From: Escherichia coli O127:H6 str. E2348/69
Lineage (GTDB): Bacteria; Pseudomonadota; Gammaproteobacteria; Enterobacterales; Enterobacteriaceae
DNA length: 64,000 bases
Assembly: GCF_000026545.1 (NCBI RefSeq)
Contig: NC_011601.1
Strand: one strand, 5' to 3'
Shown: piece after piece, positions 9,001 to 12,000 of the stretch
Layout: each line of letters begins with the position of its first letter
Position numbering within the stretch: the stretch's first letter is position 1
Program-made: the position numbers

Positions 9001-12000
9001 AAGTTGCCCTGAAAGAACTCGATCGGACCTTTGGTGATGTCTATGCCAACGAAGCCGGGCATCTTGAACTGCAATACACCGCCCGCGCCAGCTATGCACT
9101 GGAAAAAGCGTTTGGCGCTCCACTGGGACGGGCTTGCGGCGTTATTGTCGGCGCTCCGGCTGCGGTGGGTGTTCTAATGGCCGACACCGCGCTGAAGTCC
9201 GCCAATGTGGATGTCGTGGCATACAGCTCCCCCGCTCAAGGCACCAGCTACAGCAACGAAGTCATTCTGATTATCTCGGGTGACTCCGGCGCAGTCCGCC
9301 AGGCGGTCATCTCCGCACGCGAAATCGGTAAAACCGTGCTTTCGACTCTCGGCGATACACCGAAAAACGATCGCCCTTCCTACATCTGAATTCTCTGAGG
9401 CAGATTTATGAGATCGAAAAGATTTGAAGCACTGGCAAAACGCCCGGTCAACCAGGACGGTTTCGTTAAAGAGTGGATTGAAGAAGGCTTCATTGCGATG
9501 GAAAGCCCGAACGATCCTAAACCGTCAATCAAAATTGTTAACGGCGTCGTTACCGAACTGGATGGAAAACCCGCCAATCAGTTTGACCTGATCGACCACT
9601 TTATCGCCCGCTACGGTATCAATCTCGCGCGCGCAGAAGAAGTCATCGCGATGGATTCGGTAAAACTTGCCAATATGTTGTGCGATCCAAATGTCAAACG
9701 TAGCGATATCGTTCCCCTTACCACAGCAATGACGCCTGCAAAAATCGTCGAGGTGGTTTCGCAGATGAACGTGGTAGAGATGATGATGGCGATGCAGAAA
9801 ATGCGCGCCCGTCGAACACCATCACAACAGGCTCACGTCACCAACATCAAAGATAACCCGGTACAAATTGCCGCCGACGCAGCTGAAGGCGCATGGCGCG
9901 GGTTTGATGAACAGGAAACCACCGTTGCCGTTGCTCGCTATGCACCGTTCAACGCCATCGCCCTGCTGGTCGGCTCACAGGTGGGACGTCCGGGCGTCTT
10001 GACCCAGTGTTCACTGGAAGAAGCCACCGAACTGAAACTCGGTATGTTAGGCCACACCTGTTACGCCGAAACAATTTCTGTCTATGGTACAGAACCTGTT
10101 TTCACCGATGGCGATGATACCCCGTGGTCAAAAGGATTTCTCGCGTCATCCTATGCTTCTCGCGGCTTAAAAATGCGCTTTACTTCCGGCTCCGGCTCTG
10201 AAGTACAGATGGGTTACGCGGAAGGCAAATCAATGCTTTATCTCGAGGCTCGATGCATTTACATCACCAAAGCCGCAGGCGTTCAGGGTCTGCAGAATGG
10301 TTCGGTAAGCTGCATCGGTGTTCCATCAGCTGTGCCATCAGGCATCCGCGCAGTATTAGCGGAAAACTTAATTTGCTCATCGCTGGATCTGGAATGCGCC
10401 TCCAGTAATGACCAGACCTTTACCCACTCGGATATGCGCCGTACCGCACGTTTCCTGATGCAATTTCTGCCAGGTACCGACTTTATCTCTTCCGGTTTTT
10501 CCGCTGTGCCGAACTACGACAACATGTTTGCTGGTTCAAACGAAGATGCTGAAGACTTCGATGATTACAACGTCATTCAGCGTGACCTGAAGGTTGATGG
10601 CGGGCTGCGACCAGTACGCGAAGAAGATGTTATCGCAATCCGCAATAAAGCCGCTCGCGCTTTACAGGCTGTCTTTGCCGGTATGGGACTACCGCCAATT
10701 ACCGATGAAGAAGTCGAAGCGGCAACCTATGCCCACGGTTCGAAAGATATGCCTGAGCGCAATATTGTGGAAGACATCAAGTTCGCCCAGGAGATTATCC
10801 ATAAAAACCGTAACAGCCTGGAAGTGGTGAAAGCCCTGGCGCAAGGCGGTTTTACCGATGTCGCCCAGGACATGCTCAACATGCAAAAAGCAAAACTGAC
10901 CGGCGATTATCTCCATACCTCAGCCATCATCGTCGATGACGGACAAGTGCTCTCTGCGGTCAATGACGTCAATGATTACGCCGGACCAGCTACAGGTTAC
11001 CGCCTGTAAGGGGAACGCTGGGAAGAGATCAAAAATATTCCCGGTGCACTTGATCCCAACGAAATTGACTAAGGGTGAGAAATGGAAATTAACGAAAAAT
11101 TACTGCGTCAGATTATCGAAGACGTGCTGGCAGAAATGCAAACGAGCGACAAGTCCGTTTCATTTCGCGCACCTGTCTCTGCAACTGTCTCTTCAGTGCC
11201 AGATACCGAAAATTTTCTGACCGAAATTGGCGAAGCCCAACAAGGCACTCAGCAAGATGAAGTCATTATTGCTGTAGGCCCGGCGTTCGGCCTGGCGCAA
11301 ACCGTCAATATCATCGGTATTCCGCATAAAAACATTTTGCGCGAAGTGATTGCCGGTATCGAAGAAGAAGGCATTAAAGCCCGTGTGATTCGCTGCTTTA
11401 AATCGTCCGATGTCGCATTCGTAGCAGTCGAAGGAGATCGTCTTAGTGGTTCAGGTATTGCTATCGGTATTCAGTCGAAAGGCACAACGGTTATCCACCA
11501 GCAGGGACTTCCTCCCTTGTCTAACCTGGAACTTTTCCCACAAGCGCCTTTGTTGACGCTGGATACTTATCGTCAGATTGGCAAAAACGCCGCGCGTTAT
11601 GCGAAGCGCGAGTCTCCACAACCGGTGCCGACCCTCAACGATCAAATGGCGCGACCGAAATACCAGGCCAAATCTGCCATTTTGCATATTAAAGAGACGA
11701 AGTACGTGGTCACTGGCAAAAAACCGCAAGAACTGCGCGTGACGTTTTAACAAAGGAAACCTTCATGAATACCGATGCAATTGAGTCGATGGTCAGGGAC
11801 GTGTTGAACCGCATGAACAGTTTACAGGATGCAGCTCCTGTTTCTGCGGTCCCCAGCGCGTCAATACAGAGCGCCAAAGTGACGGATTACCCGCTGGCAA
11901 ATAAACATCCGGAATGGGTTAAAACAGCAACCAATAAAACGCTCGACGATTTCACTCTGGAAAATGTGCTAAGCGATAACGTCACCGCCCAGGATATGCG

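Follow-up and report, generated by a model that had tools for sequence, protein, structure and literature searches.

The pduC gene of Escherichia coli O127:H6 strain E2348/69, which encodes the large subunit of the B12-dependent diol dehydratase, is interrupted by a premature stop codon that is reproduced across assemblies of the strain, is restricted to one lineage, and removes a C-terminal segment conserved in the protein family. What results is a genuine nonsense pseudogene of an ordinary kind, confined to one lineage and already annotated as such. The explanation that best accounts for the evidence as a whole, and which we regard as probable, is that this change (Q534stop) leaves the PduCDE enzyme non-functional or badly impaired and renders the strain Pdu negative. 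The analysis was carried out on a stretch of 64,000 nt of E2348/69 DNA, here called the window, whose first 36.7 kb are an exact match to NZ_CP059840.2.

A premature ochre codon truncates the pduC reading frame

As seen in the raw sequence around the stop (ggt tac cgc ctg TAA ggg gaa cgc), the TAA occupies positions 11007 to 11009 and represents a substitution, not a homopolymer indel. Translation of positions 9408 to 11072 in one frame gave GPATGYRL, a stop, GERWEEIKNIPGALDPNEID, and a second stop, with 20 sense codons between both stops. The second stop, which is the ancestral TAA, lies at positions 11070 to 11072, and the pduD ATG at position 11082 begins 9 nt past it. The codons lost from pduC number 21, namely, Gln534 and the 20 that follow. 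All of these positions and counts are as given in the original prediction. The features of the region are collected in Table 1.

The 533-aa product scored 1041.6 bits against the NCBIfam profile NF011979, above the family cut-off of 788, and PF02286 is on record for it. The truncated protein covers positions 2 to 534 of the 555 positions of NF011979 and the repaired protein covers positions 2 to 555; the truncated form falls short of the full-length profile of about 554 to 555 residues, C-terminal helix included. Compared with PduC/PddA of Klebsiella oxytoca (1DIO/1EEX) and Salmonella and with the families NF011979 and PF02286, residues 1 to 533 align end to end with few substitutions (E = 0, 1212.8 bits), and the operon context, pduABCDE-GH, is the same as in K. 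oxytoca and Salmonella. However, the E2348/69 product lacks residues 534 to 554, which are kept by every homologue examined. Directly downstream of pduC, the pduD, pduE, pduG, and pduH genes are intact, so that the medium subunit, small subunit, and reactivase genes are found in the neighborhood of the truncated gene.

TABLE 1 Positions of pduC, its two stops, and associated pdu features in the window of E. coli O127:H6 E2348/69
Feature	Position	Strand	Basis or remark
pocR, pdu positive regulator	5855..6772	-	Private 3-bp insertion at about 6511-6513, adds Ile87
pdu operon, pduA to pduV	8296..22827	+	All ORFs but pduC full length
Truncated pduC ORF, B12-dependent diol dehydratase large subunit	9408..11009	+	ORF list; 533 codons plus premature TAA
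Premature ochre TAA, codon 534	11007..11009	+	C-to-T at 11007 versus CAA (Gln) in relatives read
Orphaned in-frame tail GERWEEIKNIPGALDPNEID plus ancestral TAA stop	11010..11072	+	Single-frame translation
pduD ribosome-binding region AAGGGTGAG plus ATG, overlapping the ancestral pduC stop	11071..11084	+	Sequence
pduD, medium subunit, intact; protein identical to LF82	11082..11750	+	
pduE, small subunit, intact; protein identical to LF82	11765..12283	+	

The ancestral codon was CAA

The alpha chain of the crystallized K. oxytoca diol dehydratase (1DIO) is a protein of 554 aa with the C-terminal end GYRLQGERWEEIKNIPGALDPNEID, in which residue 534 is Gln. The orphaned pduC tail aligns with this C terminus and is 100% identical to it; both the Gln and the alignable tail had been anticipated. 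Gln is also found at codon 534 of Salmonella and Klebsiella PduC, where the stop is absent. In three relatives that were read base by base, FDAARGOS_1259 and LF82 among these, position 11007 is a C and the codon is CAA; therefore, the change at codon 534 was a C-to-T transition from CAA to TAA. The inspection of the sequence alone had pointed to a single nonsense substitution, with CAA or CAG as its source, and the relatives bear this out in favor of CAA.

Intact E. coli pduC genes, represented by AIEC strain LF82 and FDAARGOS_1259, are 99.6 to 99.7% identical to that of E2348/69 at the DNA level, with one or two other residue differences and an identical operon gene content, whereas at codon 534 these relatives have CAA and their product measures 554 aa. 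Over the 1.8 kb of pduC-pduD, identity was 100% to the three E2348/69 assemblies and 99.6 to 99.7% to the best-matching other E. coli, and the 63 nt after the pduC stop have zero DNA differences from either LF82 or FDAARGOS_1259. Carriers of pduC amount to 642 of 5,426 complete E. coli genomes. A 61-nt probe centered on position 11007 was exact in 3 of the 636 complete genomes with this stretch, all of them E2348/69 or derivatives; the remaining 633 are at least one base off the probe. A PduC that was "repaired" at Q534 and otherwise identical had exact matches on 284 contigs.

The stop codon arose in a natural ancestor of E2348/69

The TAA at position 11007 is identical in three E2348/69 assemblies, i.e., the Taunton stock (CP059840.2), the Sanger/Imperial "variety 2" (LT827011.1), and an engineered Spanish derivative of the latter (LT903847.1), whose different project origin was judged from the record descriptions. 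The accessions of the exact 533-aa product include CAS09680.1 (original genome), EFR15934.1 (E. coli 2362-75), and EHU09783.1 (a further NCBI record). The TAA is also present in a metagenome scaffold (L007) and in the draft genome GCA_000249055.2 (L009), each with several differences from the window within 7.6 kb. In total, the exact 533-aa product was found on 74 contigs and in 153 collection blocks. We take 2362-75 and the drafts of the DEC collection to be O55:H6 strains of the EPEC1 clone.

These records bear on three alternative accounts of the stop. The original prediction had left the choice between a real mutation and a sequencing error; three agreeing assemblies, together with other strains that carry SNPs in the flanking DNA, exclude the latter and leave the former standing. 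An error of sequencing or assembly in the source genome had its prior possibility and the example of a probable homopolymer error in pduA of the draft relative L009 to commend it, but the change in pduC is a substitution, its base recurs in all three assemblies, and the product is present in other named strains and across the collection blocks, so that we give this account practically no weight. A stop acquired while E2348/69 was passaged in the laboratory, and missing from natural isolates, would agree with its presence, among complete genomes, in E2348/69 and derivatives only. Against this, 2362-75, the EHU09783.1 record, and a metagenome scaffold all have exactly this truncated protein; SNPs separate L007 and L009 from E2348/69, whose private pocR insertion they do not share; and the 74 contigs with truncated PduC compare with 46 for the private PocR variant and 54 for the private SbmC variant. 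A laboratory origin is accordingly very improbable. Programmed recoding or readthrough, which would yield a short PduC alongside a full-length one, has a negligible probability as well. The frame downstream of the stop is still open and unchanged, but an intact orphaned tail is explained more simply by the youth of the mutation. Moreover, the stop is not conserved, being absent from the relatives read and from Klebsiella, Salmonella, and the distant homologues, and the 61-nt probe is exact in no other complete genome. In E. coli, termination is efficient at a UAA with a G after it, and TAA-G is the context of this stop. The only tRNA in the window is a tRNA-Asn, leaving no suppressor tRNA there, and the predicted RNA fold of positions 10990 to 11110 is unremarkable (z = -1.97).

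Several isolates share the pduC stop, which therefore goes back to a natural ancestor and predates the E2348/69 stock. On the other side, the lack of differences in the 63 nt after the stop and the full length of the other pdu ORFs indicate that the mutation is evolutionarily young. Its earlier description as "recent" therefore holds on the evolutionary scale, given the unchanged orphaned tail, but the mutation is older than the E2348/69 stock and is shared by a lineage.

In the original genome annotation, pduC was deposited as a 533-aa CDS, and for each of the three E2348/69 assemblies, PGAP in RefSeq already lists it among the pseudogenes ("incomplete; missing C-terminus"). In our literature search, no paper was found that names the E2348/69 pduC stop codon.

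The lost segment is conserved and is predicted to contain a short helix

A homologue search among 1.84 billion representatives returned 1,239 PduC homologues. The C termini were aligned for 17 credible distant homologues, with 39 to 61% identity overall and natural alpha-beta fusions included; fragments and frame-shifted metagenome ORFs, which were many among the 50%-identity representatives, were left out of the conservation count. The segment lost in E2348/69 is kept in all 17, and GYRL is terminal in none. Of the 21 lost residues, Arg537 is invariant (17/17) and Trp538 is shared by 13 of the 17; aliphatic residues occupy positions 541 and 544 in every one, whereas position 534 is variable. 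The natural alpha-beta dehydratase fusions among the distant homologues include P0018, P0019, P0021, P0083, and P0095, in which the conserved alpha tail leads into a linker of 25 to 45 residues and then into the beta core motif EVV.AVGPAF.

From the K. oxytoca structure, we take Q141, H143, E170, E221, Q296, D335, and S362 to be catalytic or metal-binding residues. All seven are kept in the truncated protein, and all are upstream of the stop. In an AlphaFold2 model of full-length PduC alone, a helix is predicted at residues 535 to 542 with a pLDDT of 71 to 79, and residues 496 to 521 are below 50. In the AlphaFold model of an artificial PduC-PduD fusion, for which the alignment included natural alpha-beta fusions, the tail has a pLDDT of 55 to 62, a value that is not raised beside the beta subunit. 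A review contained nothing on the alpha C terminus. Judging from the alignment and the models, the truncation thus appears to remove a conserved structural element, the predicted short helix, and not the active site.

The truncation probably inactivates the diol dehydratase

The reading that we favor starts from the C-to-T change that turned pduC codon 534 from CAA into TAA in an ancestor of the EPEC group including E2348/69. Translation now ends 21 codons early, and in the resulting PduC(1-533) the barrel is kept along with the residues for catalysis and metal binding, but the protein is without the family-conserved segment, that is, the short helix at about residues 535 to 542 with the invariant Arg537. 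Most likely, the PduCDE diol dehydratase would be non-functional or badly impaired, and 1,2-propanediol would not be converted to propionaldehyde.

E2348/69 is the EPEC strain that Connolly et al. (2018) compared, as a human pathogen, with Citrobacter rodentium in their work on how propanediol regulates virulence in the latter; 1,2-propanediol supported no growth of E2348/69 even when 200 nM cyanocobalamin was supplied, and propanediol was without effect on its LEE1 expression (PMC6180029). In that study, the non-use of propanediol was put down loosely to a "truncated pdu operon," and the pduC stop is unmentioned (PMC6180029). Deletion of pduC in the pdu-positive E. coli CUMT8 abolishes growth on 1,2-propanediol (PMC9220930); pdu-positive E. 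coli of the LF82 type show pduC-dependent growth on this substrate. Neither of two EPEC RNA-seq papers mentions pdu. The published no-growth phenotype fits the expectation for a pduC null and favors inactivation over mere attenuation, and we infer that the pduC stop suffices to cause it and that the younger pocR insertion is not the cause.

The pocR insertion places Ile87 in a conserved YRCHAGL-I-TDFSIPL stretch of the sensor domain. It is present in 3 of 638 complete E. coli genomes, E2348/69 only, and the NCBI accessions of the variant protein are all E2348/69 records. Since the insertion is missing from L007 and L009, both of which have the pduC stop, it is younger than the stop. The insertion alone could block pdu induction and explain the published phenotype; as a confounder, it means that the lack of growth of E2348/69 is not assignable to pduC alone. 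The operon had been described at the outset as otherwise intact, which is correct for the other pdu ORFs from pduA to pduV, all of full length, but which overlooked this private one-codon insertion in pocR.

The main competitor to inactivation of the enzyme is a truncation that is tolerated or merely attenuating, in which PduC(1-533) would assemble with PduD and PduE and work, and the pocR Ile87 insertion or a lesion outside the window would account for the lack of growth. The loss affects only 21 of 554 residues, so some residual activity of PduC(1-533) is possible, and all seven active-site residues listed above are upstream of the stop. The persistence of the allele in several distinct isolates and the E2348/69-private insertion in a conserved motif of pocR also speak for a tolerated truncation. 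However, the tail is kept in all distant homologues with Arg537 invariant, no sampled natural member of the family ends at GYRL, and the allele would be just as likely to persist if its loss of function were neutral in a propanediol-independent lineage. Overall, we consider tolerance unlikely and retain a non-functional or badly impaired PduCDE as the probable outcome of the stop.

The surrounding pdu operon

Between the new termination point and the pduD start, 72 nt are now untranslated, and some loss of pduC-pduD translational coupling is possible. No convincing structure occluding the pduD ribosome-binding site was found in the RNA fold of positions 10990 to 11110.

The gene content of E2348/69, in which pduA to pduV and cobUST are present and pduW/X and the cbi genes are missing, is the same in LF82, a strain that uses propanediol. 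Since LF82 shares it, the "truncation" of the operon is not peculiar to E2348/69. Upstream of pocR, at about positions 2423 to 5770, the window contains only a cobalamin riboswitch, a hypothetical ORF of 438 nt, and cobUST, with cbiA-P absent, and at positions 22827 to 22930, the operon ends at pduV without pduW/pduX. The same arrangement is seen in LF82 and FDAARGOS_1259, which marks it as a typical E. coli pdu island and not as an E2348/69-specific one. In the FDAARGOS_1259 locus (L010), cobS is annotated as frameshifted at positions 14107 to 14852, and pdu is otherwise intact. In the draft GCA_000249055.2, a 1-bp deletion in an A6 run at the equivalent of window position 8402 divides pduA into ORFs of 37 and 52 aa; we rejected this frameshift as a sign of further operon decay because its location in the A6 run makes a sequencing error in the draft probable.

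Comparison with host-restricted Salmonella and implications for EPEC

Nuccio and Baumler reportedly described, in 2014, pseudogenes in the pdu/cbi/ttr genes of anaerobic gut metabolism in host-restricted Salmonella serovars. E2348/69 resembles these serovars in the loss of propanediol catabolism by point mutation in a specialized enteric pathogen, with the rest of the operon seemingly intact, but differs from them in that another species and lineage is concerned and in that one or two lesions are involved here (pduC and possibly pocR). A tentative extension, which we hold to be possible although rather doubtful, is a stepwise decay of the pdu regulon in the EPEC lineage, with the shared pduC Q534stop first and the pocR Ile87 insertion later in E2348/69 alone, maybe pathoadaptive or driven by the niche. 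If so, it would parallel the decay of pdu in host-restricted Salmonella and would be a case of a small-intestinal pathogen losing 1,2-propanediol catabolism.

E2348/69 is the reference EPEC strain, and pduC Q534stop provides a specific candidate lesion, with the pocR insertion as a possible second hit. If the stepwise decay is correct, the standard EPEC model strain would be a natural pdu null, and its lack of propanediol-dependent virulence regulation would not be generalizable to EPEC. The result is of modest practical value in accounting for the probable basis of the propanediol-negative state of the prototype EPEC strain. It is useful for reading EPEC metabolism experiments and for the choice of strains, and it involves no new biological principle.

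Other lesions and arrangements in the window

A second C-terminal nonsense truncation, W144stop, affects sbmC, the gene for a DNA gyrase inhibitor (positions 24727 to 25158, minus strand). The E2348/69 protein ends at NNGAEDGY after 143 aa, and that of LF82 has 157 aa with the end GYWDIEMYVAVQPKHH. Among 5,417 complete genomes, this truncation is private to E2348/69, and it is not marked as a pseudogene by PGAP.

At about positions 47395 to 63100 (1923615 to 1939324 of the record), the colanic acid genes wza...wcaF-gmd-fcl-gmm-manC-cpsG are followed directly by the O127 wzx/wzy O-antigen genes, and wcaI, wcaJ-wcaM, and galF are absent from the annotation of this region. The arrangement looks like a fusion of, or a deletion between, the colanic acid and O-antigen GDP-fucose gene sets.
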